In this document: piece after piece, positions 11,353 through 64,000 of the stretch
How positions within the stretch are numbered: position 1 is the stretch's first letter
Layout: every line of letters begins with the position of its first letter
Assembly (NCBI GenBank): GCA_045650045.1
Contig: JAZRQU010000075.1
Span: 32,043 to 96,042, forward strand
Direction of reading: 5' to 3'
DNA from: Candidatus Egerieisoma sp.
GTDB lineage: Bacteria; Bacteroidota; Bacteroidia; Bacteroidales; UBA932
Length of the DNA: 64,000 nucleotides
Program-made: the position numbers and the translations under genes
Notes under the pieces: model-generated
The model's database searches: none
What the model saw: the letters and a program-made list of their open reading frames with translations, nothing else
What the model was told of the DNA's origin: nothing

Positions 11353-11353
11353 A

Positions 11354-44144: not shown

Positions 44145-44156
44145 AAGAAATGCCCC

Positions 44157-44187: not shown

Positions 44188-44256
44188 TTATTATTTCATA
44201 TCAGCAACTTTTATAATAAATAAAATTTTATAACTTTGGCTGATATTACTTTTTGT

Positions 44257-45204: not shown

Positions 45205-45230
45205 ACAAAATATCAATAAAAAACATCCTT

Positions 45231-46796: not shown

Positions 46797-46819
46797 CAAG
46801 ATATACAGGAGGAGCTGAA

Positions 46820-47968: not shown

Positions 47969-48007
47969 CACAAGAGAGGCCGGACAAAGAATTTTGATCC
48001 GGTCTCT

Positions 48008-49285
48008 TTACTTTTTATACCCTAACAACCAAACAAGAGAAACCTCAGCTTTAGTAGGACCTATCAATTGTCTGTCTGCAGTCCTCTGCCATACATAATG
48101 ATCATCTTCCGGAAGGTATTCCTTAACCTCACCCTTAAGATATCCTAAGCCTAAATTAAGGTCTATATTAAGCTTATTAGAAACCGGAAATGAATACCCA
48201 TATTCTACACCAGCTCCAAAAGTCCATTTCTCCCCCATAAAACCTCTTTTCCCAAGATTAAAGTCAAATGTCATCATCTGGCCATAAATACCAAGATGAT
48301 GACCAGTAAAACGTTTATCTGAAAAGTTATTGCCAAACCATCTTCTTAAAGCGACATCTCCTCCATAAATTCTCCAAGTATAGTTCTTGGAATCCTTATT
48401 CCACCATGAATACATCCAATTACCGGCAAAACTGACTTCGTCAGACAAATAAAATTCAACACCCAAATTAGGTACCAGAGAAATATCATATAGCATATTA
48501 GTCTTAATTGCTAAAACAGGCTTATAACCGCATTTAGATAAAACAGTCTGCCTTTGATATGGTAGTGGTATCTCAACTTTATTAAAATTACTCTCTAATT
48601 TCTGTACAAAATGAACATTTACATGCCCAACTTCATTTTTTAACAGAACATGTTCTTTTTCAGCAACCTTTTCGGTTGCTGAAACTGGTATTACAGACAA
48701 AATAATTTCAATCTGTGCTATCCTTAACCTATCAAGGAAATTAGACTTTACATATCTGTAAAGATCGGGATTACTTCTAAAAGCATTATACTTCTCTGAA
48801 TATGAAAGGCTCGTATTATTTAATATAGCACACATCTCATCTTTATATTTGACAGATGGATCATCAGCAATAAGATAAAGTAAATTCTCCCACATATTTG
48901 TTTTGCTGTCAGCTACAACAATATTGTGATCAAGATGTGGAAACAAATTTTCAAGCAGCTGTATTGTATTCAGCGCACGTAATCTGGCAATATATCTGTT
49001 CACAGATAAAGTACCATCAGGAGAAGCAGAGGCCATAATTGATATGGATTTTACTTCTAGACTGTCACTAGAAGAAGAGCGTGACATATCATCAATCAAC
49101 TGAATGATGGTTTCTTCATTATTTTTGAATTCCTTATTTACTTTTGTTTCATTTATCTTAAAGTAAAGAGTGTAGGATTTTAAAATCACTTCAGTCTCTT
49201 GAGCCATAAGAATATTGCATGCGGAACATACAAACATGAAAACAAAAAATATAACTGAATATCTTGTTATTTTATAAATCATCAC
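48008..49285 (-). CDS. OmpA-like N-terminal region plus DUF3575-like outer-membrane beta-barrel protein
   Basis: Signal peptide ...LMA|Q. SASPDGTLSVNRYIARLRA resembles the OmpA-family peptidoglycan-binding pattern. The C-terminal half has alternating aromatic beta-strand patterns. Paralogue of 49448..50695. Confidence 0.6.
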   Translation of the reverse strand: MMIYKITRYSVIFFVFMFVCSACNILMAQETEVILKSYTLYFKINETKVNKEFKNNEETIIQLIDDMSRSSSSDSLEVKSISIMASASPDGTLSVNRYIARLRALNTIQLLENLFPHLDHNIVVADSKTNMWENLLYLIADDPSVKYKDEMCAILNNTSLSYSEKYNAFRSNPDLYRYVKSNFLDRLRIAQIEIILSVIPVSATEKVAEKEHVLLKNEVGHVNVHFVQKLESNFNKVEIPLPYQRQTVLSKCGYKPVLAIKTNMLYDISLVPNLGVEFYLSDEVSFAGNWMYSWWNKDSKNYTWRIYGGDVALRRWFGNNFSDKRFTGHHLGIYGQMMTFDFNLGKRGFMGEKWTFGAGVEYGYSFPVSNKLNIDLNLGLGYLKGEVKEYLPEDDHYVWQRTADRQLIGPTKAEVSLVWLLGYKK

Positions 49286-49447
49286 AAATACAAATTATCG
49301 TAAAATATGCTTCTAGCGTATCACAAAGGTATGAATTAATTAAAATTATCAATCAATTTCAGAAAAATTATACTAAAATTAAAATTATATATTTAACTTT
49401 ACAGGGTGAATTTAATCAGGACACAAGCTTAATGATCTAAAATAAAA

Positions 49448-50695
49448 ATGCGCAACAACTGGATAAAAGTGAGGATACTGCTGTCTGCTACCCTTTTCCT
49501 GCTAACTATCTTTAACTTATCAGCACAGGAAAAAGTAAAGGTATACTTTAAATTTGACGGTTCAGACATGCTTGTAGACTATATGGCAAACAAACACTCA
49601 CTCAATATGCTGTTGCACAAAATTGACAGTATTGGGGTAAATTCTCTCGACTCCATTGTAATTGTTTCACAAACTTCTCCCGACGGAGTTTACGAACACA
49701 ACATACTCCTATCAAATAAACGTGCATCAGCATTAAAGAAATATCTGGTATCACAACGCCCAGAAACGTCAAATCTTATCAAAACAGATAGTCGTGGAGA
49801 AGCATGGGATGAATTGAGAGAACTGGTACTTTCAGATAATAAAATATCAGATAAAAGCAGAAATAGCGTAATAGCCGTCATTGATGCCAATATAAATACC
49901 GGTACTAAAAAATGGAGACTGGAGCAACTTCCTATCTATAGATATTTGCGTATTACCCACTATAAAGAACTTCGCAATTCAAATTATTGCCTTTTCTATA
50001 TAAAACAACAGGAAGTAAAAGAACAAGTGCAAGTAGAGAAAGTGGTAGAAGAGGTTGAGCCTATAAAACAACAGGAAGCAATTGAAGAAGTTAAAGTTGA
50101 ACCGGATAAGACTACTGTTACAACTGTAGAAAAAGAAGAAACATTTACAGTTTCTGAAATATCCAAAAATGAGGCATTTTTCATAAGGAGTAACCTGCTT
50201 CTGCCTCTTTTGAACTTTGGAATTGAAGTTCCTATTGGAACAAAATGGTCTGTAGGTGCTGATTATTACTTCCCATGGCAAAAGCGCGATAAAAGCAACA
50301 AAAACTGTACTCAAGTCCTAATGTGGAATCTGGAAGGAAGATACTGGTTTGGAAAGGACAGGACAAAAGATTACTTACTTGAGGGTCACTCTATTGGATT
50401 GAACACAATGTTTGGGTTATACGATCTTGAGAAAGATTATACCGGACATCAGGGAGAATTTGTAAACTTTAGCGTAGACTACACATACGGCATGCCAATA
50501 TTCAAGGATAAATTACATTTGGAATTTACAATTGGACTTGGATACTTATTCTCTAAAGCAGAGAAATATAATGTTTTAGAAGAAGGTGGCAAAGGCTATA
50601 AAAAAAGCTACAAGGAAAATATCCATTGGGTTGGACCAAACAAGCTAGGAGTATCTATTGTAGTTCCAATTAACATAAAAGGGAGGAGCAAATAA
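49448..50695 (+). CDS. OmpA-like N-terminal region plus DUF3575-like outer-membrane beta-barrel protein; first gene of pilus module 2
   Basis: Signal peptide ...LSA|Q; QTSPDGVYEHNILLSNKRASALKKYL; E/K/V-rich linker; C-terminal beta-barrel-like half. Confidence 0.6.
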   Translation: MRNNWIKVRILLSATLFLLTIFNLSAQEKVKVYFKFDGSDMLVDYMANKHSLNMLLHKIDSIGVNSLDSIVIVSQTSPDGVYEHNILLSNKRASALKKYLVSQRPETSNLIKTDSRGEAWDELRELVLSDNKISDKSRNSVIAVIDANINTGTKKWRLEQLPIYRYLRITHYKELRNSNYCLFYIKQQEVKEQVQVEKVVEEVEPIKQQEAIEEVKVEPDKTTVTTVEKEETFTVSEISKNEAFFIRSNLLLPLLNFGIEVPIGTKWSVGADYYFPWQKRDKSNKNCTQVLMWNLEGRYWFGKDRTKDYLLEGHSIGLNTMFGLYDLEKDYTGHQGEFVNFSVDYTYGMPIFKDKLHLEFTIGLGYLFSKAEKYNVLEEGGKGYKKSYKENIHWVGPNKLGVSIVVPINIKGRSK

Positions 50696-51735
50696 TGAAG
50701 AAAGTGTTCAAATATACAATATATGCACTTCTGCTGATTGCTTCACTGCAGGGGTGTACAAGAATGGAATTGTATGAACTGTCAACAAAAGTGAATCTTA
50801 AGCTCAATATGAATCTGCAGATCAACAGCAATATTGACTTAAAGATAGATCCAGAACTGGACGTTGAGTTCAAAAACAAGATTAACGGCATTATGCCAAA
50901 ATATATGGAAGTATTGTTCTACGATGCCGAAAACAATTCGAGAAGAGCTTCATTCATATTGCCGGTTGAAGGTGGCATAATAAATATTGAACCGGGAGAC
51001 TATAACATAGTTGCATATAGCTTTGGAACAGAATCAACACAAGTAGGTGAATTGGGAAATTTGAATAGAGCAAAAGCATTCACAACCAATATCACCAAAG
51101 CAATGGCATCCAAATTCAAAGCAGCAATTACTAATGCCAAACCTGAAAGCGAAAGTACCCAAAGTACAAAAGGATATGAAGATGATCCAATTATCCATGA
51201 ACCTGACCACCTATATGTTGCTAATGAAAGGATGATAAATATTCCTTCTGTAACACACCAGAATGAAGATATTACAATACATGCAACAGCCAACACCATT
51301 ATAGACATATATAGTCTGGAAGTTTTGGGTGTAACAGGATGTGAAAACATTGAAAAAGTAGAAGCATTTATCACAGGGCAAATAAAAGAGAACTACTTTG
51401 GTTCAGAGTTGAGAGGATCTGATCCTGCAACAGTATATATTACGCTAAAACCAGACGGAAACAACAACAGACTATATACAGTATTTGGCACCTTTGGAAA
51501 ACTTCCAGGGGCAGATAACAAAATATATTTGGATATAACAGTCACAAATACCGGCGGAGGCCAGTACAGATACGTATATGATGTAACAGACCAGTTTGAA
51601 GATATTGAAAACATTAACAACAGATTGATTATAAGAGACTCTATCAACATCTTGCCGGGAATACAGGGTGGTGGCGGACTTGATCCATCAGTAGATGAAT
51701 GGGATAAGGAAGAAATAGATATCCCACTATCTTAG
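50695..51735 (+). CDS. Type V pilus anchor-like lipoprotein (Mfa2/FimB- or DUF5119-like), module 2
   Basis: Start overlaps the upstream stop (TAATG). Lipobox SLQGCTR; C-terminal GGGGLDPSVDEW block is paralogous to 44257..45204. Confidence 0.6.
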   Translation: MKKVFKYTIYALLLIASLQGCTRMELYELSTKVNLKLNMNLQINSNIDLKIDPELDVEFKNKINGIMPKYMEVLFYDAENNSRRASFILPVEGGIINIEPGDYNIVAYSFGTESTQVGELGNLNRAKAFTTNITKAMASKFKAAITNAKPESESTQSTKGYEDDPIIHEPDHLYVANERMINIPSVTHQNEDITIHATANTIIDIYSLEVLGVTGCENIEKVEAFITGQIKENYFGSELRGSDPATVYITLKPDGNNNRLYTVFGTFGKLPGADNKIYLDITVTNTGGGQYRYVYDVTDQFEDIENINNRLIIRDSINILPGIQGGGGLDPSVDEWDKEEIDIPLS

Positions 51736-51778
51736 AAACAATTAAAACTAATATACAAACCATTTAAAATCAACTCTC

Positions 51779-52687
51779 ATGAAAAAATTATTTTTGTTGG
51801 CAGCTTCAGCAATGATGGTATTTGCTAGTTGCAGTAAAACAGACATTATCTATCAAGATGAAACCCCACAAGAGATTGGATTGTTCCCAGTTGCTAAAAA
51901 ACAGACCAAAGCAGCAATTGATGGTACAGAATTCAGTTATACTAATATGATGGTAGCAGCATACCTAGCTGCAGGAGACGGTGTAACACCAGGTGCATAT
52001 TTTTCAGGAACCACATTCGAAAAAGGGAATAGTAATTTCACTGGTGGAAAATATTGGCCTATTCAGAATTCTACACTTAACTTCCTTGCAACAGCTCCTG
52101 TAGAGGATGGTATTTCAACTGAAATTAATGCAGAAACAGGTGTAGCAACTGTTACATTGACAGATAATCAATCAAATCAATATGACGTTATGTACGCAGT
52201 AGCAAGAGCTTCAAAATATAACAAAGTAACTCCAGTAGTAGGAATGACATTTGAACATGCTCTTGCATGGGTAAAATTTAAAATTACAGGTACAAATGAA
52301 ATAACCATTAACAAAATTACAGTTAATGGAGCAAAATACAATGGCACACTAACTGTTACTACTACAAATTGGACGGAATCGACAAATGACAAAGAGCTAA
52401 CAGCTGATTTTACTTGGACTGATGGTGAAACTATGGATAACATAACCGTCCCAACCGACGGATTGCTTGTAAGACCATGTGATGCTACAAGTTTTGTTAT
52501 CAATTATACAGTAACAAACGGTAATGATGTTCATGTATATAATTATACATATAATCCTGATGAATGGATTCAAGGTAAGAAATATATATATAACATAACC
52601 ATGAGTCTTCAGGGTATTGAAATCGCACCAGTAATAACAGATTGGACTGATACTCCAACACCTGACAATGGTATAACAATTCAATAA
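51779..52687 (+). CDS. Fimbrillin-family lipoprotein, candidate major stalk pilin (302 aa)
   Basis: Lipobox VFASCSKT; KYWPIQNSTLNFLATAP and MTFEHALAWVKFKIT motifs. Followed by two strong hairpins. Confidence 0.65.
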   Translation: MKKLFLLAASAMMVFASCSKTDIIYQDETPQEIGLFPVAKKQTKAAIDGTEFSYTNMMVAAYLAAGDGVTPGAYFSGTTFEKGNSNFTGGKYWPIQNSTLNFLATAPVEDGISTEINAETGVATVTLTDNQSNQYDVMYAVARASKYNKVTPVVGMTFEHALAWVKFKITGTNEITINKITVNGAKYNGTLTVTTTNWTESTNDKELTADFTWTDGETMDNITVPTDGLLVRPCDATSFVINYTVTNGNDVHVYNYTYNPDEWIQGKKYIYNITMSLQGIEIAPVITDWTDTPTPDNGITIQ

Positions 52688-52696
52688 TAAATATCC

Positions 52697-52729
52697 AATC
52701 CTACAGGACTAATTTAGTCCTGTAGGATT
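52697..52729 (+). terminator. 16-bp perfect palindrome (AATCCTACAGGACTAA / TTAGTCCTGTAGGATT) after the 302-aa pilin gene
   Basis: Arms at 52697-52712 and 52714-52729, read directly. Confidence 0.6.
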
Positions 52730-52764
52730 AATACCATCCAGCATCAATGACTGGATATGCAGGT

Positions 52765-52790
52765 TATAAGGGGTTGAATGTCCCCTTATA
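52765..52790 (+). terminator. Second hairpin (TATAAGGGG / CCCCTTATA, 8-nt loop) in the same intergenic gap
   Basis: Arms at 52765-52773 and 52782-52790. Confidence 0.45.
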
Positions 52791-52811
52791 GCTACTAAAT
52801 TAAAATAAAAT

Positions 52812-53873
52812 ATGACTAACGTGCGCATAATATATTTTTCACTTATAGCATTGCTTGCTTCAATGACTGTTGTTTCTTGTTCAAAAGAGGAACTTGGAAA
52901 TGACAGCAATAGTTATGAAATAAATTTCAATTGTAATGAAATTGGAGTAAAATCAGCAACTGATGCAACTGTTGAGGATTTGAAGAGCGGGTTCAAAATT
53001 TATGCGCACACTACATTTGAACCGCAAAGCTCAACTCCCACTACAGCATCTTCATTTCAAAGAGAAGTTTATCATGATGGTCAGAAATGGACATACGAGA
53101 ATACAATGCTTTGGATTCCAGATGCAACTTTTAATTTCAGAGGCTACTTTCCCGCTGATGCAGTTACAATAAATGAAACTGGTTACAATGAATATGAAAT
53201 GTTCTACACAAATATTGCAGACAAAAGTGACCAGGTAGATTTGCTTTTTGCCAGTGCAACAAAATCAACAGCACAAGCAAAACAAGACAGCTATGCAGCT
53301 GTATCACTTAATTTTAATCATATTCTCTCCAGAATAAACATTAAAGTAAAAGTTGATGCTACCGGTAATGTTCCAAAATTGGGAGCAATTGTAAAAGGAG
53401 TAGGATTAAGCGATATTGCAGATAATGCAAGATTTACAAATGGGCAATGGACTGATTTCTATGGTTCAGCAGATATTGGACATAATGCAACCTGGCTGAT
53501 TGGTGAATCTAAAATTGTAGAAAAAGGTGACCAGTATGAAATCAATCTAGATTATCCAGAAGGTGAGAAACTATTTGAAGATGAGGATTCTTTTTTAGTT
53601 ATACCCCAAAAGTTAAATGATAAAGTAGCAGCATTGAGAATGTATGTTGATATCATTACTCCCCCTGTCAAAAATGCAGAAGGAGAATATGAATATGAAA
53701 TTTTGATGCAGGATCAGCCTTTAGTTTGTAACATTCCGGCTATAACATGGGAAAAAGCAAAGCAATACACATACATAGTAACTATAACACAAAGTTTCTC
53801 TATAAATATTGAAGAACCGGAAATTGAAGACTGGGAAGATTCAAAAATGTCGGGAACCATAATTATTAGATAA
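52812..53873 (+). CDS. Fimbrillin-family lipoprotein (accessory pilin-like)
   Basis: Lipobox TVVSCSKE; LNFNHILSRINIKVK motif. Confidence 0.65.
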   Translation: MTNVRIIYFSLIALLASMTVVSCSKEELGNDSNSYEINFNCNEIGVKSATDATVEDLKSGFKIYAHTTFEPQSSTPTTASSFQREVYHDGQKWTYENTMLWIPDATFNFRGYFPADAVTINETGYNEYEMFYTNIADKSDQVDLLFASATKSTAQAKQDSYAAVSLNFNHILSRINIKVKVDATGNVPKLGAIVKGVGLSDIADNARFTNGQWTDFYGSADIGHNATWLIGESKIVEKGDQYEINLDYPEGEKLFEDEDSFLVIPQKLNDKVAALRMYVDIITPPVKNAEGEYEYEILMQDQPLVCNIPAITWEKAKQYTYIVTITQSFSINIEEPEIEDWEDSKMSGTIIIR

Positions 53874-53874
53874 G

Positions 53875-54924
53875 ATGAGGAGTAAGTTTACATATTTGCT
53901 GATAATTTTTGCAATGGCTTTCATATCTTGTGAAAAGATTGGCAGCGATAGTGAGGAAATTGACTTGTCTCAAAAGGCTGGTTATATAAAGTTCTCTTCC
54001 AGCGTTTCAACCAAGGCTCCAATAATAACGAGTTTACGGGGGGACGCATTTGGCGTTATAGGATTTGAGTATCCCAATTATCAAAGCTGGTCATCTGCAC
54101 GATCATTGGCAACGCCAAATCTTTGCCATGAGCTGGCAGTAGAGTGTGATGAATATGGCTCATGTTCATACGACACAGATCCAAACAATTCAGGCAAGCA
54201 ATATATGTTATGGGATTTGTTAAATAACCACACATTTTTTGCATATTATCCTTTAAGGACAAATAACAATGGTATAACAATAAGTGGCAGCAATAATCTG
54301 AACACACCATACATAATTTATGATATTCCATTAGGCAATGGAGAAAATGCTGTTGATCCCGACAATCTTCTGGATATAATGACGGGATATGCAGTGGACC
54401 AGACCGTACGAAGTGGCGAAGTTGGATTCAAATTCCAGCACCGATTGACCTGTATTGATGTTATTGCCAGAAACTTCAATGATAATACCCAACAAATTTC
54501 AAATTTATCTATTGAATTGAATGGGATACAATACAATAGGATAAAAATTCCTATGCAGAAAGGAGACAGCCAATTTGATGTTGAACGCAGCATAAAAACA
54601 GGCACTACTATTCCTGCAACAGTACGATTCAATATATCTTCAGACGAAATTGTAGAAATAAGCAAGAACCAGGTTATAGGATTAACTGGAAATGAAAATG
54701 AAGAAAAGAATATAATAATCATACCTCAAGATAACCATATTTCAGGAACTGCACATTTTAAAAATAATGGTGAGACCAAGAGTATGACCTTTAATTCAGA
54801 ATTCGAACTGGAAGAGGGTAAGAAATACAGTATAATTATAAATTTCACAGGTGATGACATTATTGTGCTTATGGTAGAATCTGGAGCTTGGGAAGTAGTA
54901 CCTGTAAAACATGATTTTGACTAG
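53875..54924 (+). CDS. Fimbrillin-family lipoprotein (accessory pilin-like)
   Basis: Lipobox AFISCEKI; FKFQHRLTCIDVIAR motif. Confidence 0.6.
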   Translation: MRSKFTYLLIIFAMAFISCEKIGSDSEEIDLSQKAGYIKFSSSVSTKAPIITSLRGDAFGVIGFEYPNYQSWSSARSLATPNLCHELAVECDEYGSCSYDTDPNNSGKQYMLWDLLNNHTFFAYYPLRTNNNGITISGSNNLNTPYIIYDIPLGNGENAVDPDNLLDIMTGYAVDQTVRSGEVGFKFQHRLTCIDVIARNFNDNTQQISNLSIELNGIQYNRIKIPMQKGDSQFDVERSIKTGTTIPATVRFNISSDEIVEISKNQVIGLTGNENEEKNIIIIPQDNHISGTAHFKNNGETKSMTFNSEFELEEGKKYSIIINFTGDDIIVLMVESGAWEVVPVKHDFD

Positions 54925-54927
54925 ATT

Positions 54928-57591
54928 ATGAAGAAAACGTATATATATATTTCATTATTGGCAATTACTTTTGCTGTTTTAGCAGGTTGTACTTTAACCG
55001 ATATGGAGCTTAAAACCGGTTCTGGTATTGTTACTGTAATGGGTACAGCTGCAGAGTTTAAAGGAATAACTGTTAGCACTAAAGCCGTTGAAGAAGATGA
55101 AAAGAAAGTTAGTGAGATTACAATGGCTATCTTTGATTCAGATGGTAATGTTGTAGGCCGTATAGTTAACATTCATGCTTCAGAAACTAACCCTGTATTT
55201 GTTATTGACACAAAATTCAGGGATAATAACGGCAATCTGAAACCATATATACTAGCTGGTGATGAGACAATCTATATAACTAATGATCAGACTTTACTGA
55301 ACTCCTGCAATATTTATATGATTGCCAATAGCTGGGAATATATTCCAAAAAACAATGAAGGTATCCCAACAATTACTAAAGAGTCTGAATTATTGCAAAT
55401 ACAGATTCCTGTAAATGCAAGTAATCTTACTATTCCCGATAATGGCTTCAATGGATTTCCTATGATTGGAAAATCTGGGAACATAGACTTAAGCGCAGAT
55501 AGATCTGGTGCTACCCAAATGGAGGACATAACTATGCTCAAATTGTATGCTAAAATTAATGTAAGCATACAAATTAATGCGGAAAACGTTATTACAAATC
55601 CTAAATTTACACTTACAGGCTGGAAGGTAAGCAATGTCCCTACAGTAGTAAAACTGGGAGAGCCGGCAAATAATGAAGAAACAATATATGCTAATGGTGA
55701 TAAATCCAAGTTGTTCGAATCTTACGAATCTAAAGTTTTATCATCGGGAAGTCTTAATATAAGCAACTCAATATCACTGGACAATCCAGATAAGATGCAA
55801 TTTACATTCTATATTCCTGAACATAGAGTTATTGCAGACAATGAAATCATTTATCCGGATGAAATTAATATTAGTACAGATACTGAACATACTATAAAGC
55901 AAAGGTACAAACCTTTATTGTGCTCTGATGGAAAAAATCCATTATATGTTACAATTAATGGTATTTATACTGACCATCAAAATCAGATGCATACAGTTAC
56001 ATATACAATATATCTTGGACAAGACAGTTATTCTGATTTCTGTGTAAACAGAAACCAACAATTAAATAATATTGTAACAATAAAAGGTGTTACAAACAAC
56101 AATCCTGGATTTGACGAAGATGGTAAGCCTATTTTCAATATTTCAGCAGACTATAGAGTAGAAGTAGAATCTAATGGCAACTATGTAGTAAAAGTAGAGC
56201 GTGATGCCCTTCTTGATTCTCATTTTGAAGTTCGCCCTTTGGATGTGTACATAAACGGTGGCGGTACTGTAAAAATATCTGTAGTAGATGCCTCCAGCAC
56301 AGATGCTACTGATAAATACAGAATATGGTTAAGAATGGAAAACGGAGGAACCGGGGATGACTATATAGGCACAAAAGGTGTTAGAAAATATTTTACAACT
56401 GATCTTGTAACTAACACTCTTAAGAATAATACAACTATAGAAATCAATTCTAACGACGCCAATAGTACGTTACAAGAAAGAATATGGCTTTACTTTGATG
56501 AAAACCCAAATGTATTTGACAGAACCGAACCAAATAATGATGAATTAAATAAACAATATAGGGATATCACTATAAGACTGGAGTACTATAATCCTAACGG
56601 AACAAAGGATGACTCGCAAACCAGGAACATAACATTCCGTCAAATGAATTTATGGAGGCTATGGTCATATACTGATGAAACAAAGACTACTAAAAAAAGA
56701 TTCTATGATATAGAATACCATGAAGAATACCTGAATAACTATGCATCAGACCAACCATTTGGACAAACCACAGATGGATTACCATGGGGTTTGAATGGAT
56801 TATCATTGTCAAAACACTATGAAGCAACAGATTTGGGAAATACCGGCACAGGCTGGTGGGATTATATACTAGATATTTTTGGAGCATCATTATCTCCTTA
56901 TTATGATTACAGTTTGGATACTGATAGGAATTATCTAGAACAAATAGATAAGTTTAAGGATATTGATATAGCAACAACTCATGAATTTGCAGGGTTAAAT
57001 TTCACAAAACAAATAGCATACATAGGCGAAATAAGTAGTAAAATGAAGGACATGACCCTAAATGTGAGTGCAGAGACTGCAATACAGTATTGCTTAAATA
57101 AAAATAAAAGAAATAGTAACGGAGAGATTCCAATTAATAATGATAATACACCAAATTACGCTTCAGACTATGTGCATTGGTATTTACCATCTATAGATGA
57201 AATTCAAGAAATTGTTGTTGCCGGATATCAGGATTTTGAAGTATTTCAAAACAAATTTTACTGGTCATCACAACCAGCTTATGAAATAGCATCTGTTTAT
57301 CAGTACTCAGATTTATGGGGGAGGGAAAATACACTGAAAGGATATATGTTACAAGAGAATAATGAATATGCAAGAGCAACAAGTGCTGTTTATAACGATG
57401 GATGGACATTTAAGAAAAATGGTATAAGAGGAGAGTCATACCATCATCAATTAGTTTATTTTTTGGGAACGTACGATAAAAATAATTCCCATGAAATCGA
57501 AGTATCAAATGATCTTATAGACGAAGGATACATGCCACGATCAAATGTCAACCGTATCCGCTGCATACGTAATTCAGGAACATATCAATAA
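54928..57591 (+). CDS. Large pilus-associated lipoprotein (887 aa), candidate tip adhesin (DUF4906-like) with DUF1566-like C-terminal module
   Basis: Lipobox VLAGCTLT; last gene of the pilus operon. C-terminal WYLPSIDEIQEIV...FYWSSQPAY resembles the W.LP...E....YWSS pattern of DUF1566/Fib_succ-type domains (recalled from memory). Confidence 0.55.
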   Translation: MKKTYIYISLLAITFAVLAGCTLTDMELKTGSGIVTVMGTAAEFKGITVSTKAVEEDEKKVSEITMAIFDSDGNVVGRIVNIHASETNPVFVIDTKFRDNNGNLKPYILAGDETIYITNDQTLLNSCNIYMIANSWEYIPKNNEGIPTITKESELLQIQIPVNASNLTIPDNGFNGFPMIGKSGNIDLSADRSGATQMEDITMLKLYAKINVSIQINAENVITNPKFTLTGWKVSNVPTVVKLGEPANNEETIYANGDKSKLFESYESKVLSSGSLNISNSISLDNPDKMQFTFYIPEHRVIADNEIIYPDEINISTDTEHTIKQRYKPLLCSDGKNPLYVTINGIYTDHQNQMHTVTYTIYLGQDSYSDFCVNRNQQLNNIVTIKGVTNNNPGFDEDGKPIFNISADYRVEVESNGNYVVKVERDALLDSHFEVRPLDVYINGGGTVKISVVDASSTDATDKYRIWLRMENGGTGDDYIGTKGVRKYFTTDLVTNTLKNNTTIEINSNDANSTLQERIWLYFDENPNVFDRTEPNNDELNKQYRDITIRLEYYNPNGTKDDSQTRNITFRQMNLWRLWSYTDETKTTKKRFYDIEYHEEYLNNYASDQPFGQTTDGLPWGLNGLSLSKHYEATDLGNTGTGWWDYILDIFGASLSPYYDYSLDTDRNYLEQIDKFKDIDIATTHEFAGLNFTKQIAYIGEISSKMKDMTLNVSAETAIQYCLNKNKRNSNGEIPINNDNTPNYASDYVHWYLPSIDEIQEIVVAGYQDFEVFQNKFYWSSQPAYEIASVYQYSDLWGRENTLKGYMLQENNEYARATSAVYNDGWTFKKNGIRGESYHHQLVYFLGTYDKNNSHEIEVSNDLIDEGYMPRSNVNRIRCIRNSGTYQ

Positions 57592-57597
57592 CACAAG

Positions 57598-57621
57598 GAA
57601 GCCGGATAATAATCCGGCTTC
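57598..57621. terminator. Bidirectional terminator hairpin (GAAGCCGGA / TCCGGCTTC) between convergent genes
   Basis: Arms at 57598-57606 and 57613-57621; T-rich sequence follows on the plus strand. Confidence 0.65.
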
Positions 57622-57643
57622 TCTCATTTTATATAAATAATTT

Positions 57644-58774
57644 TTACACCTCTACAAGTTCATACTCCCTACAACCAAGCCCAATTTCCTGTGCGTACTG
57701 AAGTCCGCTCTCCCAATCGGTATCGGGGTGGATGTGCTTGAAGAGCTCATCATGCTGATGGACGTCTTCGCAGCCACAACTGCAGTGCTCTTCTTTTCTC
57801 CAGCCGTTGATTACTGGGGCTTTGTTTACAAGGTCTGCACAAGCCTGGTCCAGGGCTACGGGATCAAATGAGGCCATCATGCCAAGGTCTGGTACTAGTG
57901 GAACGTCGTTGTGGCCCCAGCAGTCGCACTCGGGTGAGACGTTCATGATCAGGCTTATGTGGAAGTTAGGTTTGTCTTTCAGTACTGCTTTGGTGTACTC
58001 AGCTATCTTGCAGTTGAGCACCTCTGAGGTGTCCCACTCGGCAAGGACTGCTGCTGCGTATTGGCAAAGGGCTACGCATTGGCCACAGCCTACACATTTG
58101 CTGTAGTCTATTACAGCTTTTCTGTCGGGATTAACAGAGATTGCTCCGTGGTTGCAGTTTTTCTCACAGATACGGCAGCCTATGCAGTTCTTTTCATTCA
58201 CTTTTGGCTGTGATGATGAGTGAAGCTCAAGCTTGCCCGCAATTGAGGCGCAACCCATTCCAAGGTTTTTCAATGCACCGCCAAAGCCTGCCTGCTCATG
58301 CCCCTTAAAGTGGCTGATTGAGATTACTATGTCTGCATCTGCCACCGCCTGTCCAATTTTTGGTGCAGGGCAGTATTTTGCCCCTTCAATTGGAATGGCA
58401 GCGTAGTTGGTACCTTTAAGGCCGTCGGCAATAATTACATTGGCATTTACAGCTATTGGATTGAATCCGTTAACCATAGCACTTTTAAGGTGGTCTACGG
58501 CGTTGTCTCTCCTACCCTTGTACAGTGTGTTTGCATCGGTAAGGAAAGTCTTGGCGCCAAGAGAATTAAGCAGGTCAACAACTGTTGCCACATAGTTTGG
58601 TCTGATGTAGGCCATATTGCCCGGCTCACCAAAGTGAAGCTTTACGGCTGTATACTGGCCTTCAAAATTTATCTGCTCTATACCGGCAGCCTTAACAAGG
58701 TTGCGGAGCTTCTTCAATAGATTTACCCCCGGCTTGCAGCGGAGATTACTGTAATAAACTTTAGATTTTTCCAT
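57644..58774 (-). CDS. DUF362-domain protein with 2x[4Fe-4S] ferredoxin insert
   Basis: CIGCRICEKNC and CVGCGQCVALC CxxCxxCxxxC motifs within a DUF362-like frame. Confidence 0.8.
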   Translation of the reverse strand: MEKSKVYYSNLRCKPGVNLLKKLRNLVKAAGIEQINFEGQYTAVKLHFGEPGNMAYIRPNYVATVVDLLNSLGAKTFLTDANTLYKGRRDNAVDHLKSAMVNGFNPIAVNANVIIADGLKGTNYAAIPIEGAKYCPAPKIGQAVADADIVISISHFKGHEQAGFGGALKNLGMGCASIAGKLELHSSSQPKVNEKNCIGCRICEKNCNHGAISVNPDRKAVIDYSKCVGCGQCVALCQYAAAVLAEWDTSEVLNCKIAEYTKAVLKDKPNFHISLIMNVSPECDCWGHNDVPLVPDLGMMASFDPVALDQACADLVNKAPVINGWRKEEHCSCGCEDVHQHDELFKHIHPDTDWESGLQYAQEIGLGCREYELVEV

Positions 58775-59637
58775 TATTTTACCCTTACAATTCTAATTCC
58801 ATCGTTGCTTTTGCGCGAGTTCACATAATTGTGAATGCTTTTCTCATCAATAACCACTTTACCGTCTCCTTGCGATGCATGGATAAAGCCTACCTCACCG
58901 TTCTCCTTATGGTAAACAATTGCCACATGAGCAATATCCAACCCCTCTACAGATGAGTTGAAGCATAGGATATCGCCATCTTTCAAAAGGTGGTCCATCT
59001 TGTTCACAACCGCTTTAGGGATAACGTAATAATCTGAGAATGAGTTCAAATAGTCCTCCATTTTGGAGATTCTGGCAACCTCTGCAGGGTTATCTTTCAA
59101 CTGTTTGTACGCAGAGGAGTGCTTGCTCATGTATGAGAATCTTTGTCCCGACAGATTATCGGCACTCAACACATCGGTAATCTCCTCAAAGATGCCTCTC
59201 CCCTCTCCTTGTCTGATCCACTCGCTGGTGTAGTGGATACGGCTTGCGTAACCATCAACTATGCCGTTGCGGTAGCGGGTGCGCTGGATGTATGCACATA
59301 GGCTGTCGGGAGAATCATAACCTTTTTTTGCATTCATGGCCATTGCCATGCAGGTCTCCACAAAAAGGATGCAGTCTGTCTCTACAAGGGATACTTTAAG
59401 CTGCTCGGGAACGAGTTCAAGCGAGCCTGCAACATACTCTGTTCCAAGCATCTGCTTTGCAGCAATCACCATCAGTTCCGGTACGGTCTTGTGGTTGTTC
59501 TCCAAAAGCACTTTTGAAATTTCAGCGTATTTGGCCTTGCTCTGTGCATCCATTGCTGTCTGTGCACTCAACTGGCCGGCAAATGTAATCATACACATTA
59601 CAAGTGCCACAACTAGAATCTTTGTTATATTTTTCAT
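58774..59637 (-). CDS. DUF1460-like exported protein (amidase/NlpC-like fold family)
   Basis: Signal peptide ...LSA|Q. The family assignment rests on recalled resemblance (ETDCILFVETCMAMA, GDILCF...HVAIV) and was not searched. Confidence 0.55.
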   Translation of the reverse strand: MKNITKILVVALVMCMITFAGQLSAQTAMDAQSKAKYAEISKVLLENNHKTVPELMVIAAKQMLGTEYVAGSLELVPEQLKVSLVETDCILFVETCMAMAMNAKKGYDSPDSLCAYIQRTRYRNGIVDGYASRIHYTSEWIRQGEGRGIFEEITDVLSADNLSGQRFSYMSKHSSAYKQLKDNPAEVARISKMEDYLNSFSDYYVIPKAVVNKMDHLLKDGDILCFNSSVEGLDIAHVAIVYHKENGEVGFIHASQGDGKVVIDEKSIHNYVNSRKSNDGIRIVRVK

Positions 59638-59666
59638 TGTAATAGAGTTTATACAAATTTAATATG

Positions 59667-61586
59667 TTAATTGAAAATCTCAAATGTAAATTTCACCCCT
59701 ATCCTGTCCCATTTGTCAACTTCTCCTCCCCAGAATACACCCATATTGAAGATATTGGTACCTATGCCGTATCCCATCTCCACATATGGGCTCATTGTAT
59801 CTACAAGAAGCAGGTTGCAGTAAAGGCGCTCCTTTGTTATGAATTTAACCTTTCTCAAGAGCGTTGGTACCAGCAGTAAAGGGGCATCATATTGCACATT
59901 GGCCCTTAAATATTTATCTATCTCATGGTATTTTACTGATGAGAGGAGGTTGAATGTACCACCTATATCATCATCCCAGCCATGAGGCAAGTGATTGTCC
60001 TTAAGGTTCTTGAACTGTACAAAGTAGAGATAGTTATAATCCATGGCAATGCCAAAGCCCGCCCTGTAGGTGAGCGAGTGCATTGGCCCCACTTCTATCT
60101 GGTGCTGCATATCAACCTCCAATCTGCCAAACTCCACATCACTGCCAATGATCCCTTTAATTGAGTGGGCATACCTCAGGGTAAAGGTTGGGTAGCCTTT
60201 TTTGCTGTACTGGAGCTCAACTTCAGGGGCAAAAGTGGTAAATGAAGTCTTGTCCTGAGAATGCGCCTCCTTGTTGTGCCAGGTGTAACGCAGCTGGGCT
60301 GCAGTAGCCGTAATGGATATATTGTCCATTATATTAATGGAGTGGCCCAATTTGGCATAAGATGTCCTCAATTCCTGCGGCACCCCGTTCCCCGCCTCTA
60401 TGAAGAATCTGCCGCTGGTGGATGGAGAATAGAGCCAGTTGCCTTTTACAGCCCAGTAAAACTCCTTGTATTTGAAGTTATAGCCAACAAGCGGCGCAAC
60501 GCTGAACATCTTCTCTTTTGGGAGTTGACGTGTATATTTCAGCTTCTGGGTATACGACAAGCCGCTATTTGTGCTATAATGGAACAGAAGCGGGCTCACC
60601 AGCGGTGCCATGTAGAGTGATCCCTTGTCATTGAGATTCATGGAACGGCTTTTCACAAGGAAATATCCTCTTTGCGTCTTCTTTTGCCCGGTGGTGACAG
60701 TATCTTGTTGGGGCTGCTCTGCAAATGTACTGTCGGGATAAAAATTATGGTCCCCAATACGTGTATAGGCGAACTCCTGTGTGCATTCGGCATTAATTTT
60801 GGTACCCAGGAAGTTACCTTTGAAATTCACCTGCAACTGGATTGGCAGATGCTCCTGAAGGCTCCCCTGCTCCCCCATCTGCACAATATTGCAATACTGT
60901 CCAAACTCCATATTTCCGGCAATATGCATATCCTTTACAGACAAATTGTCCTGGGTAACTGTGATATACCCCTCCACAAACTTGTAATTGGTGATTTTGG
61001 GAATAAAAGCAATCTTGTAATGGAGACTTCCCCTTTCTACCCAAGTAGAATCCAATGAGAAATCATAATATTTTCCCGACAAATATGCCAACGGCGAGTA
61101 TATGTTCCCGTATATATACTGCGAATAGACATTTATATTCTGTGCCAGGGAAGTAATATGCTCTGTGAATTCCTTAACAATCAGACTGTTATCCTTGCCA
61201 ATTGAAGTAAGTGTGGTAGTGGTGCTATCCTGTGCAGTGTGCTTGAGTGTACCTGTATATTGCTGTGTAAAACTTCCCTCACTGAGCTTTGCCCTGTTAA
61301 GGTATGGCACTAGCGCCGGAAAAAGCCCTTTATGGAGAACATCTACCTGTGAAAATATCTGCAGATTTGCCTCGTAATCCTGTTTTTCAGCCGTCCTTTG
61401 CTGCGCATAATGCCGGAGACTGTCGAGAATTTGAGGAAGGCTGTATTGTGTGGCTGGCTGATGCCTGGTATGGTCCTGGGTGAGGGCATGGATGTGGGTG
61501 TGGGTGTCACATACGAGAACCTCCGGGCATAACATACCCATAAAAGCTGTCAAAAAAAATATGCACATCCTCCAATTCATCTCCAA
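59667..61586 (-). CDS. Hypothetical outer-membrane-type protein (possibly DUF5686-like, without the usual N-terminal carboxypeptidase-regulatory domain)
   Basis: 639-aa ORF with an N-terminal hydrophobic segment and an aromatic-rich, beta-strand-like C-terminal half ending in ...KFTFEIFN. Confidence 0.5.
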   Translation of the reverse strand: MEMNWRMCIFFLTAFMGMLCPEVLVCDTHTHIHALTQDHTRHQPATQYSLPQILDSLRHYAQQRTAEKQDYEANLQIFSQVDVLHKGLFPALVPYLNRAKLSEGSFTQQYTGTLKHTAQDSTTTTLTSIGKDNSLIVKEFTEHITSLAQNINVYSQYIYGNIYSPLAYLSGKYYDFSLDSTWVERGSLHYKIAFIPKITNYKFVEGYITVTQDNLSVKDMHIAGNMEFGQYCNIVQMGEQGSLQEHLPIQLQVNFKGNFLGTKINAECTQEFAYTRIGDHNFYPDSTFAEQPQQDTVTTGQKKTQRGYFLVKSRSMNLNDKGSLYMAPLVSPLLFHYSTNSGLSYTQKLKYTRQLPKEKMFSVAPLVGYNFKYKEFYWAVKGNWLYSPSTSGRFFIEAGNGVPQELRTSYAKLGHSINIMDNISITATAAQLRYTWHNKEAHSQDKTSFTTFAPEVELQYSKKGYPTFTLRYAHSIKGIIGSDVEFGRLEVDMQHQIEVGPMHSLTYRAGFGIAMDYNYLYFVQFKNLKDNHLPHGWDDDIGGTFNLLSSVKYHEIDKYLRANVQYDAPLLLVPTLLRKVKFITKERLYCNLLLVDTMSPYVEMGYGIGTNIFNMGVFWGGEVDKWDRIGVKFTFEIFN

Positions 61587-61630
61587 ACATTGATTTTATT
61601 GTAAAGATAACAACTTTTATGCAAAAAAAT

Positions 61631-61661
61631 TTTGCAGAACCAAAAAAACCTCCTATATTTG
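61631..61661 (+). promoter_or_regulatory. Bacteroidetes-type promoter of the tRNA pair (-33 TTTG, 19-nt spacer, -7 TATATTTG)
   Basis: TTTG at 61631-61634 and TATATTTG at 61654-61661, ~33 nt before tRNA-Arg. Confidence 0.6.
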
Positions 61662-61693
61662 CATCCGCAAAGGCAAACAGCTAATGCGGGACT

Positions 61694-61767
61694 GGTCCAG
61701 TAGCTCAGCTGGATAGAGCAACAGATTTCTAATCTGTGGGTCAGGGGTTCGAATCCCTTCTGGATCA
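61694..61767 (+). tRNA. tRNA-Arg (anticodon TCT)
   Basis: Hand-folded cloverleaf: acceptor GGTCCAG/CTGGATC, D-arm GCTC..GAGC, anticodon stem ACAGA/TCTGT with loop TTTCTAA, T-arm AGGGG-TTCGAAT-CCCTT. 74 nt; CCA not encoded. Confidence 0.9.
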
Positions 61768-61779
61768 CTTAACCAGTCC

Positions 61780-61852
61780 GACTCGCTAGCTCAGCTGGTA
61801 GAGCACGACACTCTTAATGTTGGGGTCCAGGGTTCGATCCCCTGGCGGGTCA
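61780..61852 (+). tRNA. tRNA-Lys (anticodon CTT)
   Basis: Hand-folded cloverleaf: acceptor GACTCGC/GCGGGTC, anticodon stem CGACA/TGTTG with loop CTCTTAA, T-loop GGTTCGATCC. 73 nt. Confidence 0.9.
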
Positions 61853-61859
61853 CTAGGAT

Positions 61860-61902
61860 ATCGCAATCACTTGTTAATCAAGCGGTTGCGATTTTTGTTT
61901 TT
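61860..61902 (+). terminator. Intrinsic terminator after the tRNA pair (ATCGCAA...TTGCGAT stem plus TTTTTGTTTTT)
   Basis: Arms at 61860-61866 and 61886-61892, with additional inner pairing; T-rich tract at 61892-61902. Confidence 0.65.
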
Positions 61903-62200
61903 CGGAAAAATTCCGCAATTTTTCCACTAATTCCTTCTTAACTTTCTATATATCAATCTGTTAACTAATTTATTCATAAACGATTGTAATACAATTGTCT
62001 ATAATATATTATGTTTCTGTGGATTACACTAATCAACAAGTTCTATTATTGGAAAATTTAGTGACTCTATACAGGTCACATACCAAAATATTAGAATAAT
62101 TTTTTGGTATTGAATTTCTGATGCGCCTTCGTTTTTCTGAATTATTCACAAAATGGAAATGTATTACTAAATTTACAAGTGGAATTTATGATATTACAAT

Positions 62201-63811
62201 ATGGAAACGAATATATCTTCAAATCAAAGTCAGCTTCAACAAGCAGCTACGGGACAAGAGGTGGAACCTAAAGGAATAGTTCTCAATAGAATGTATACAG
62301 GCAGTTACCTGTCTACAAATCTTGGTCATGAGGTTATCAATATGTTTCAGGCTGATAATGGAAAGCATTATTTGTATTTAAATGCGAGAGGAAATTTTAG
62401 CAAAGAGGGTAAGCAAGTTAATACTATGCTTCTCGTGCGACATATTGGAGGAAGCACAGTAGAGGCTGTTGGCATGGCAAAGAATCTTAAGCCGATAGAT
62501 AGCGCATGCTGCACGCTCCCAAGAGATATAGGCAGAATTAATCAAAAGGTGCGAAATGAACAAGAGGCTTTTCTCAAATCAACGGATCATAAGGTTGAAT
62601 ATGGTGAAGTCCCTATTATAAAGATTTTTGGAGATAAGGGACAGCAAAGTGTGTATGTATCGTATTGGGTGGAAAAAAATGATTTTTTTATACCGGCTAA
62701 GAATATAAATATAAGAATTGAATTTCCTCCATCAGATGAAAATAAATTGGACGATTATAAGAAAAAAGCACTGAAAGAAGAAATAACAGTATGTTCAGAA
62801 GAGAAGCAAAAAATTACAACTACTATTGTAAGGATGAAAGAACATAATTTTTCTTCTACATCCTTGCATCAATTTATTTTTGAGGGGGAAGATTTTAAAA
62901 ATCTATCTACTCTGTGCAATGAGAATGGTATAAGTTTGTGGGAGCAAGATAACACTAAAGTTGATAAGCTTAAAGATAATTCAGCAGTGGATAAGAGAGA
63001 GATATCTTTATTCGATATTTGCCAGATTCAGAAAGATGAAAACAGGATTTCTAATGCCTTAAGTTATTTTATTGACAAATATCCAAAGTTGTGGCACACG
63101 TTTTTTTCTGAACAATTATCACCCTTTGAACTTGGAGAAATCGAATCAGTAACGAGAGAAGAAAATACAAAAATAAAAGAAAATAATTCTACAGGAGGCC
63201 GTATTGATTTGCTGATTCGTACTAAAAATTGCTATATCATTATTGAAAACAAGATTGATTCTGAAATAATTATTGAAAATAACGTTACTCAGTTACAACG
63301 CTATTATAATTATGTTAGTATTCTCAAAACACAGGAGAGTGACAGATTAGATAAAGAAAAAACACAACTAAATAACGACTTAGAAAAGTATAAGAAATAT
63401 TACGAAGACCCTAATAAAAAACATTGGAAAAATAGGAGCAAGTGGGAGCAAAAAATTAATGAATTAACCCTAAAGTTTAAAAATGTAGAGCAAGAGTTGC
63501 AAGATGTTGAAAATAGAAAAATTGAAGGATTTGTTTTAACGCCAAACTATAATCCTCCAAAACTCAATCTACTTGAAGTAAATAATGATTTTTGCTTTAA
63601 ATGGTTATCATATAAAACAATATATGAATGGCTTACCAAAAATGAGGATGCTAAGTGTTTAATAGAAAAAGATGCCAACTTTAAAGCATTCTATAATGTA
63701 ATTAAAAGACATACATACGAGTTTGAAAGTTCAATGTTATACGAAGAGATGAAGAGCACCTTCTTTACTCGAATAAAAGAACTTAATCATACATCACCAT
63801 CAACCAAATAA
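62201..63811 (+). CDS. PD-(D/E)XK nuclease-family fusion protein: unknown ~330-aa N-terminal region, nuclease core, coiled-coil insert
   Basis: GGRIDLLIRTKNCYIIIENKIDSE followed by VTQLQRYYNY gives a D...E.K...QxxxY pattern typical of PD-(D/E)XK (PDDEXK_4-like) nucleases. K/E-rich heptad-like stretch at aa ~405-450. Markedly AT-rich gene. Confidence 0.65.
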   Translation: METNISSNQSQLQQAATGQEVEPKGIVLNRMYTGSYLSTNLGHEVINMFQADNGKHYLYLNARGNFSKEGKQVNTMLLVRHIGGSTVEAVGMAKNLKPIDSACCTLPRDIGRINQKVRNEQEAFLKSTDHKVEYGEVPIIKIFGDKGQQSVYVSYWVEKNDFFIPAKNINIRIEFPPSDENKLDDYKKKALKEEITVCSEEKQKITTTIVRMKEHNFSSTSLHQFIFEGEDFKNLSTLCNENGISLWEQDNTKVDKLKDNSAVDKREISLFDICQIQKDENRISNALSYFIDKYPKLWHTFFSEQLSPFELGEIESVTREENTKIKENNSTGGRIDLLIRTKNCYIIIENKIDSEIIIENNVTQLQRYYNYVSILKTQESDRLDKEKTQLNNDLEKYKKYYEDPNKKHWKNRSKWEQKINELTLKFKNVEQELQDVENRKIEGFVLTPNYNPPKLNLLEVNNDFCFKWLSYKTIYEWLTKNEDAKCLIEKDANFKAFYNVIKRHTYEFESSMLYEEMKSTFFTRIKELNHTSPSTK

Positions 63812-63819
63812 CTTCAACA

Positions 63820-64000
63820 ATGCCTAAATTCTTCACCAAATCCGCATTCAGCATGGCCTTGGAATGTCCGAGGAGGCTTTATTATGCATATGACAAGAAT
63901 GAGTATGCTAATCAGAACTTGGATGATGAGTTTCTTAAGTCGCTGGCTGAAGGAGGTTTCCAGGTTGGGGAGTTTGCCAAGCTGTGTTTTGGAATTGGCA
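63820..64000 (+). CDS. RecB/Cas4-like (DUF2779-like) protein, N-terminal 60 aa only (cut by window edge)
   Basis: ATG at 63820, 8 nt after the upstream stop. MPKFFTKSAFSMALECPRRLYYAY resembles the N-terminus of the DUF2779 / PD-(D/E)XK family (recalled pattern; too short to be sure). Confidence 0.4.
   Translation, partial: MPKFFTKSAFSMALECPRRLYYAYDKNEYANQNLDDEFLKSLAEGGFQVGEFAKLCFGIG

Follow-up and report, generated by a model that had tools for sequence, protein, structure and literature searches.

What kind of DNA begins directly behind the tRNA-Lys(CTT) gene near the right end of the 64,000-nucleotide stretch analysed here (the window, positions 32043-96042 of contig C75 of the source genome G000, a Candidatus Egerieisoma species), and do the two nuclease-like genes that open it serve in defence? 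Candidate defence genes that encode nucleases are familiar from tRNA islands, and an earlier note, made from the letters of the window, had proposed such a case: a genomic island at the tRNA 3' flank whose first two genes, here called ORF1 and ORF2 (ORF, open reading frame), would form a tightly coupled nuclease pair. Contig C75 runs 8.2 kb further than the window; locus L001 comprises C75:90043-104228, and an L001 position plus 58000 gives the window position. A 7.9-kb genomic island of low guanine-plus-cytosine (GC) content almost certainly sits in the 3' end of tRNA-Lys(CTT) in this gut or rumen Bacteroidales host, and ORF1 and ORF2 open its lead module.

The island and its integration site

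The island is bounded by two identical copies of a 17-nucleotide (nt) sequence, the first of which overlaps the end of the tRNA-Lys gene:

61694..61768, plus strand: tRNA-Arg(TCT), found with ARAGORN (Rfam tRNA, 69 bits)
61780..61853, plus strand: tRNA-Lys(CTT), the integration target, found with ARAGORN (Rfam, 61 bits)
61838..61854 (L001 3838-3854), plus strand: left attachment core (attL), 17 nt, TCCCCTGGCGGGTCACT, made up of the final 16 nt of tRNA-Lys and one further base, found by exact-repeat search
C75:101772-101788 (L001 11730-11746, window-equivalent 69730-69746), beyond the window: right attachment core (attR), identical to attL

The segment between the repeats measures 7,893 bp (C75:93896-101788), of which the window covers the first 2.1 kb only, and homologous hairpin terminators follow both attL and attR. 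The flanks of the site, a 639-amino-acid (aa) DUF5686-type protein on the left and an esterase on the right, are both present in congeners, and the tRNA-Arg/tRNA-Lys pair adjoins the same flanking gene in four of them (G020, G011, G036 and G010). A search of the island with Rfam returned the two tRNAs and nothing else. The drop in GC content after tRNA-Lys that the earlier note had described is real, with 42-50% at 57500-61750 and 28-37% from 61750 on. The island as a whole has 35.5% GC, compared with a genome mean of 44.3% (standard deviation 3.0), and falls among the lowest 0.9% of 7.9-kb genome windows; the values for ORF1 and for the gene-free leader that precedes it are 31.9% and 27.1%, respectively.

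Relatives, whose comparison at this tRNA the earlier note had suggested, hold different things at the site:

G020: site empty, with 107 bp from tRNA-Lys to the esterase and a different terminator hairpin
G011: 2-kb repeat-bounded insert with an intact 448-aa AAA ATPase
G036: 8.4-kb repeat-bounded insert
G010: three additional repeat copies, bounding 8.1, 26.7 and 1.5 kb
L222, a related metagenome contig: 7.3-kb repeat-bounded version of the same island, with ORF1 split in two (198 + 326 aa), ORF2, p93, a 174-aa p143 and an intact PDC-M13 triple

It is the same repeat, of 16-17 nt, that delimits the inserts at tRNA-Lys in G011, G036, G010 and L222, and the tRNA-Lys site is a hotspot at which relatives hold nothing, other cargo or tandem arrays. 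ORF1 was found in one of the 36 congeners searched and ORF2 also in one, the two in different genomes. The contrary case that the earlier note had named, core genes of normal composition, therefore does not describe this locus, each gene being rare among the congeners and the GC content an outlier. The tRNA-Lys repeat, the empty site, the rarity in the genus and the genome-wide outlying composition all uphold the reading as a genomic island.

ORF1

The first gene of the island can be divided as follows:

62201..63811, plus strand: ORF1, 536 aa, joining an orphan N-terminal domain to a PDDEXK_4-type nuclease that contains a coiled-coil insert
62270..62950, plus strand: N-terminal domain (N-domain), aa 24-250, nearly invariant, with the strikingly invariant motif IVLNRMYxGxYLxxxLGHEVINMFQA..HYLYLN..GN, from family alignments
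62984..63322, plus strand: PD-(D/E)XK core, aa 262-374, with E320, D336 (GGRIDLL), E349-x-K351 (IENK) and Q364
63323..63520, plus strand: coiled-coil insert, aa ~375-440, from the alignment and from helices 364-401 and 409-437 of an AlphaFold2 (AF2) model

The catalytic residues E320, D336, E349, K351 and Q364 are invariant in a 28-sequence alignment of the family, in keeping with the earlier description of the gene as a 536-aa PD-(D/E)XK-type protein. A homologue search returned 599 proteins at E <= 0.001, and for most of the 120 listed the match extends over 94% or more of the query. ORF1 itself has no Pfam match at E <= 0.01, although PF14281 (PDDEXK_4) is recorded for many of its full-length homologues among the matches listed, as well as for relatives of the N-domain. 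A profile of the N-domain gathered 867 clusters (50% identity), with lengths of ~400-530 aa for most of the 150 listed, and PDDEXK_4 lies C-terminal to it in six of the ten N-domain clusters checked. Judging from these profile matches, the N-domain and PDDEXK_4 look like a fixed two-domain architecture. The coiled-coil insert is confined to the long forms of the family.

In PADLOC, the nuclease core of ORF1 matches PDC-S26 (5e-9, 34 bits, profile positions 29-139 of 413) and Cas4_II (6e-4); since the match is limited to the core, ORF1 is not a member of PDC-S26. The AF2 model, which has a predicted local distance difference test (pLDDT) score of 82.4, gives only weak Foldseek matches, to restriction-endonuclease folds such as MspJI, McrC, R2 RLE, Hjc and Cas4. 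The 45 genome loci of the ORF1 family that were recovered all belong to Bacteroidales metagenome-assembled genomes (MAGs) or to a Prevotella sp. scaffold, many of them from ruminant or other animal gut. Apart from the bare Pfam listing of PDDEXK_4, which gives no known function (PMC3424549), the family is undescribed.

ORF2

The second gene crosses the end of the window:

63820 to C75:97949 (window-equivalent 65907; L001 5820-7907), plus strand: ORF2, 695 aa, starting 8 nt past the ORF1 stop; the window holds its 5' end, 63820..64000

The earlier note had likened this gene to DUF2779 proteins, and the Pfam model DUF2779 (PF11074) indeed matches it over positions 1-126 of 126, at 4e-24 and with 85.7 bits (cut-off 23.3). 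Invariant in the alignment of the ORF2 family are D103 and E116-x-K118, which form a PD-ExK motif, as well as Cys16, Cys281, Cys284 and Cys303, a candidate iron-sulfur (Fe-S) cluster site as in Cas4. Also invariant are D415-x-E417 and Y672-x3-D676, which fit motifs I and III of the DEDDy exonucleases; the third acidic residue of that site (E495 or D542) was placed by eye, without structural superposition. The AF2 model (pLDDT 83.4) retrieves with Foldseek the Cas4 chain 7mi4_A from a Cas4/Cas1/Cas2 complex (probability 0.99), MGME1 (0.91-0.97) and RNase T (~0.85). On the strength of these motifs and of the model, ORF2 is predicted to combine a Cas4-like Fe-S PD-(D/E)XK nuclease domain with a DEDDy 3'-5' exonuclease domain.

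This two-domain build agrees with the literature on DUF2779, which has been placed in a 3'-5' exonuclease clade and reported to co-occur with DUF83 (Majorek et al. 2014, PMC3985635). The family member MMSYN1_0389 has been described in a 2026 analysis as a Cas4-like and DEDDy fusion with an unknown role, quasi-essential in JCVI-syn3.0 (PMC13621843). DUF2779 occurs in 25 of the 197 high-quality genomes of the order (13%) and in none of 14 model control genomes.

Searches of the PDB by sequence and profile with ORF1, ORF2 and the family profiles gave nothing meaningful.

Coupling of ORF1 and ORF2

Two further genes of the opposite strand follow ORF2:

L001 7879-8160, minus strand: p93, overlapping the 3' end of ORF2 by 29 nt
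L001 8262-8693 (C75:98304-98735), minus strand: p143, beyond the window

Both are convergent to ORF1-ORF2, and the resulting four-gene module travels together; NCBIfam and PHROGs hold no useful matches for any of the four proteins. A DUF2779 gene lies directly 3' of ORF1 homologues with 69% (L077), 51% (L079), 46% (L082-84) and 31% (L126) identity, and in several module-bearing loci the stop codon of ORF1 and the start codon of ORF2 overlap by 8 nt, the source genome having a gap of 8 nt at this position. Moreover, two metagenome proteins, P0134 (1191 aa, in 2 member sequences) and P0151 (1192 aa, in 5), are seamless fusions of complete ORF1-like and ORF2-like halves, the junction in P0134 being ...RIKEYRQR-KYFTKSAF.... 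Because the usual overlap of 8 nt is out of frame, each fusion needs a frameshift, and sequencing error is an unlikely source since there are two different alleles with 2 and 5 member sequences. The tight coupling that had been read from the spacing in the window is thus seen again in conserved operons, in overlapping stop and start codons and in two natural fusions, and ORF1 and ORF2 are probably coupled in function.

The members of the module diverge at different rates. ORF2, p93 and p143 are 84-96% identical across loci in which ORF1 is only 31-51% identical, and clusters at 90% identity contain 2 sequences for ORF1, 20 for ORF2, 43 for p93 and 58 for p143. Compared with L079, the nucleotide identity is 95% from L001 5671 on, that is, over the last 47 codons of ORF1, ORF2, p93 and p143, and 68% over the remaining ORF1; L126 shows the same pattern, with a mosaic breakpoint inside the 3' end of ORF1. 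Such swapping of ORF1 alleles before a conserved partner may, by analogy, resemble the behaviour of specificity components under diversifying pressure. In addition, p143-like genes adjoin ORF1 homologues in nine contexts, five of which are without ORF2, and their presence there even without ORF2 suggests that p143 is linked with ORF1.

The gene that is damaged varies from one copy of the island to another: it is p143 in G000 and ORF1 in L222.

A candidate role in defence and its alternatives

The explanation that fits best overall, and to which about an even chance is given, is a tRNA-Lys island with a four-gene lead module in which ORF1 and ORF2 would together degrade invading phage or plasmid DNA. 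Established directly are the island boundaries, the accessory status, the domain content, the intact catalytic motifs, the conserved gene order and the fusions; a defence role of the pair is a plausible candidate with roughly balanced chances. In this reading ORF1, whose sequence diverges fast, would detect phage or plasmid DNA that enters the cell and nick or cut it, its N-domain acting as a sensor or recognition module by analogy with restriction enzymes that join recognition to a PD-(D/E)XK nuclease. ORF2 would then resect the resulting DNA ends in both polarities, and p143-like proteins, which are present beside solo ORF1 too, may regulate or restrain ORF1. This specific division of labour between ORF1 and ORF2 is doubtful. 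In its most complete form, the proposal is that gut Bacteroidales possess a system against phages or plasmids that has so far gone undescribed, in which a fast-diversifying ORF1 endonuclease with a near-invariant orphan sensor domain would cut first and hand the ends to a Cas4-like/DEDDy exonuclease, with p143-type regulators and sometimes within a single chain of ~1190 aa; it is put forward tentatively, at a chance clearly short of even.

The surroundings of ORF1 homologues were surveyed for a defence signal among 149 nearest neighbours in 41 loci. The families met there include BspA-type leucine-rich repeat (LRR) proteins (10), DUF4230 (5), DUF2779 (4), TerB (4), PDC-S01 (3), PDC-S04 (2), PD-T4-6 kinases (2), mad6 (2) and PDC-S26 (2), and individual loci have Fic (L079), ART-PolyVal, NADAR and YAcAr (L081) or an integrase, HATPase_c_3 and AAA_14 (L085) beside the ORF1 homologue. 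These neighbourhoods are accessory and conflict-flavoured, and their defence signal is modest, for which reason it is not used as strong support. The setting within the island is defence-like too, with PDC-M13 candidate genes and a putative GNAT toxin gene, and a search of IMG/VR viral contigs returned no relatives of ORF1.

Several observations weigh against a defence module on a mobile island. Recognisable defence candidates make up roughly 7% of the 149 neighbours, the BspA-type LRR surface proteins being the commonest; the PDC-type families of PADLOC are themselves unvalidated candidates, and defence by the pair rests on inference. The PADLOC check that the earlier note had proposed matched ORF1 in its PDC-S26-like core only and gave no match for ORF2. 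A Foldseek search of the PDB and BFVD with the whole ORF1 model gave no match at E < 0.02, and the N-domain has no recognisable fold relative, which makes a target-recognition role of ORF1 a guess. The quasi-essential DUF2779 protein of the minimal Mycoplasma suggests that the family may serve DNA maintenance. In G000, p143 is cut at its C-terminus (143 aa, compared with 174 aa in the other cluster members listed), and since the DUF3990 gene further along the island is truncated as well, the island is in decay and its module perhaps impaired. As a caveat on composition, low GC content, at 33-38%, is likewise found at 44000-57500 of the window, so that it marks accessory DNA in general here and not this island alone. 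Finally, of the two things that the earlier note had hoped to find by extending the sequence, the direct repeat of the tRNA-Lys 3' end is present, 7.9 kb downstream, and the integrase is not: a tyrosine integrase (PF00589) was found at this locus in none of five genomes, neither on C75 nor in the inserts of G010, G036 and G011, and other recombinases were absent among the island ORFs, serine and DDE recombinases not having been searched with their own profiles. Mobility is accordingly putative, and the island is either decayed or mobilised in trans.

A first alternative is that ORF1 and ORF2 are independent single-gene systems or unrelated genes, which stand side by side because variable islands gather such genes. 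Both families are mostly solo elsewhere: about 40 of the 45 ORF1-family loci, mostly short forms at 30-37% identity, have no ORF2 homologue directly downstream, and an ORF1 neighbour was found for none of 60 more distant DUF2779 genes (40-53% identity to ORF2), so that the pairing is restricted to a lineage of gut Bacteroidales and could be co-location only. The exchange of ORF1 alleles independently of ORF2 points the same way. Chance neighbourhood is harder to reconcile with an 8-nt stop/start overlap or gap that recurs in several lineages, with two different in-frame full-length fusions and with a pair that persists across ORF1 divergence down to 31% identity, and this alternative is held to be unlikely.

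A similarly low chance is given to the view that the module serves the island itself, either by processing DNA for the replication, recombination or transfer of the element or as an addiction system in which a toxic ORF1 is checked by p143. Phage modules for recombination and replication often include Cas4-like and DEDD exonucleases, six relatives of ORF2 lie on IMG/VR viral contigs, and the contexts are of mobile-element type, namely the tRNA island, L082 with its Bro-N gene and strings of small co-directional genes, and L085, where an integrase adjoins a solo ORF1; p143-like genes, moreover, track ORF1 even without ORF2. The loci examined, however, have no recombinase, annealing protein, replicase or transfer gene beside the module, PHROGs gave no matches, and no ORF1 relatives occur in the IMG/VR viral contigs. 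That p143 is truncated here while ORF1 is intact speaks against p143 as an essential antitoxin.

A housekeeping role of ORF2 in DNA repair or end processing, with or without ORF1 and beside a tRNA by chance, would suit its two domains, both classic repair-type exonuclease folds, and the quasi-essential DUF2779 protein of JCVI-syn3.0 (PMC13621843). It is largely ruled out by distribution and very improbable, since the insert that contains the gene is bounded by repeats, atypical in composition and missing from most congeners, and the domain has the sparse occurrence in the order and in the model genomes given above. The last alternative makes ORF2 a solo Cas4 working in trans for the acquisition of CRISPR spacers. 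The structural match to Cas4 of the Cas4/Cas1/Cas2 complex speaks for it, and DEDDh exonucleases trim prespacers in some systems, but it is rejected as scarcely credible, given that Cas1 (PF01867) was not detected in the 94%-complete assembly and that the module-bearing loci hold no cas genes.

For the preferred reading, in which ORF1 and ORF2 would degrade invading DNA, a literature search found no protection test of DUF2779, PDC-S26 or PDC-M13 and no mention of a pairing of DUF2779 with PDDEXK_4. Should the pair prove to be a defence system, the widespread and uncharacterised DUF2779 (Cas4-like plus DEDDy) family would gain a first biological role, and a new two-domain nuclease family would be defined whose N-domain has no known fold relative. 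The tRNA-Lys locus, for its part, is a natural hotspot, integrase-less and repeat-bounded, that within one genus shows empty, single and tandem-array states; it lends itself to the study of accessory cargo turnover in rumen and gut Bacteroidales.

Leader, remaining cargo and neighbouring DNA

Between tRNA-Lys and ORF1 the following features were found:

61854..62200, plus strand: gene-free leader, 347 bp, 27% GC; other module-bearing loci have unrelated leaders
61860..61892, plus strand: hairpin with 14-nt arms (86% complementary) and a T-run behind it, a tRNA terminator of the island type
62080..62110, no strand assigned: near-perfect palindrome ATACCAAAATATTA/TAATTTTTTGGTAT, a candidate operator ~90 nt 5' of ORF1

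The earlier note had described a gene-free leader of ~300 bp with a 9-bp inverted repeat. The leader stands, at 347 bp, and the repeat is real and longer than had been thought, with 14-nt arms that contain one mismatch (93% complementary) and a 3-nt loop. Its fold has a z-score of -2.85, 3 of 200 shuffles folding equally well, and it occurs once within the window. The palindrome is a possible operator; as a conserved regulatory element it is ruled out, because it is specific to this genome and unrelated leaders precede the module elsewhere. A perfect 9-nt inverted repeat is also present at 61904-61925, directly after the tRNA terminator.

The rest of the island and the DNA past attR contain:

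L001 8953-9165, minus strand: PDC-M13C-like gene, 70 aa (PADLOC 3e-18)
L001 9218-9520, minus strand: DUF3990 gene, truncated, 100 aa (3e-29)
L001 9517-9735, minus strand: DUF3791 gene, 72 aa (8e-29)
L001 ~9836-10276, minus strand: fragments of an AAA/DUF4143-type ATPase, recognised by eye from their likeness to the intact ATPase gene of G011
L001 10451-10981, minus strand: GNAT acetyltransferase, 176 aa (GNAT domain match 4.5e-8)
L001 ~10981-11730: non-coding stretch of ~580-750 bp
L001 11838-12128, minus strand: STAS-like DUF4325 gene, past attR
L001 12136-12444, minus strand: HATPase fragment, truncated and histidine-kinase-like, past attR
L001 12938-13654, plus strand: esterase gene, conserved in congeners

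The DUF3990 gene matches profile positions 1-90 of 152 and encodes 100 aa, compared with 156 aa in the intact copy of L222, so that the PDC-M13 copy of this island is probably defective. A 52-aa ORF without Pfam match lies 10 nt 5' of the GNAT gene (the pair occupies C75:100493-101191, L001 10451-11149). The N-terminal motif FDCG...LNDFL of the GNAT protein presumably recalls toxins of the AtaT/TacT type, and the two genes may be a toxin-antitoxin pair that stabilises the right end of the island. About 300 bp of the non-coding DNA beside attR are 96-99% identical in G011 and G010. The stretch from attR to the esterase, which in G000 is 1.1 kb long (C75:101789-102910, L001 11747-12868) and opens with a terminator hairpin of the island type, is probably what remains of a second, older insert that has lost its distal repeat.

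The site also varies in relatives in ways that touch ordinary chromosomal genes. In G010:C43 (L075 3079-11158) and G036:C70 (L074 1385-9760), the segment from tRNA-Lys to the first repeat holds pstSCAB, a porin, a response regulator and a histidine kinase, together with one protein that is Bro-N-like by eye. The histidine-kinase end of this block lies across the esterase in G020, and the whole block lies across the esterase in L222; given these positions on opposite sides of the esterase, chromosomal genes seem to be shuffled by recombination at the att repeats. Beyond the esterase, the sequence differs among G000, G011, G036 and G020. At the same tRNA, G010:C43 carries a 26.7-kb repeat-bounded insert (L075 11159 to L076 17874), in which SIR2-like, ADP-ribosylglycohydrolase-like, DUF1810-like and caspase-like proteins, a sigma/anti-sigma pair and large tetratricopeptide repeat (TPR) proteins were recognised by eye, and at whose end the GNAT gene recurs, along with ~1.4 kb of right-end sequence that shares 96% identity with G000.

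Comparison with known systems

The closest known relatives of ORF2 belong to the DUF2779/UU173 family (MMSYN1_0389 of JCVI-syn3.0; F.17 of the RNase H-like superfamily), with which it shares the two-domain build of a Cas4/DUF83-like PD-(D/E)XK nuclease and a predicted DEDDy exonuclease. It differs in keeping four invariant cysteines (C16, C281, C284 and C303), where the Mycoplasma protein has two, in reaching 19 bits with the NCBIfam UU173 model (cut-off 225), and in its location on an island and its pairing or fusion with a PDDEXK_4 protein, of which the literature search returned no mention.

ORF1 resembles PDC-S26 in its core, aa 262-374 of which match three profiles (5e-9 to 7e-8), and true PDC-S26 genes occur among the neighbours of its homologues. 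What sets it apart from this family, itself an unvalidated single-gene candidate for phage defence, are the orphan N-domain of 250 aa and the coiled-coil insert, neither of which the profiles cover. With Type IV/IIS-like restriction endonucleases such as MspJI, ORF1 shares the layout of an N-terminal domain followed by a C-terminal PD-(D/E)XK nuclease. Here, however, the structural matches are not significant (E >= 0.36, template modelling (TM) score about 0.14), the N-domain has no detectable SRA or other known DNA-reader fold, and no methyltransferase gene was seen beside ORF1 in the module-bearing loci.

As for the remaining cargo, all three genes of PDC-M13 (DUF3791, DUF3990 and a small third protein) are on the island, with the DUF3990 copy truncated. 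PDC-M13 is abundant in rumen MAGs and is an unvalidated candidate (PMC13356809). The locus as a whole departs from tRNA-targeted genomic (defence) islands in that no tyrosine integrase lies in or near the examined inserts and that the G010 and G036 segment carries ordinary pst and two-component genes. It has in common with them the 3'-end site, the 17-nt repeat, the atypical GC content, the empty and alternatively filled sites and, in G010, an array of multiple repeats.

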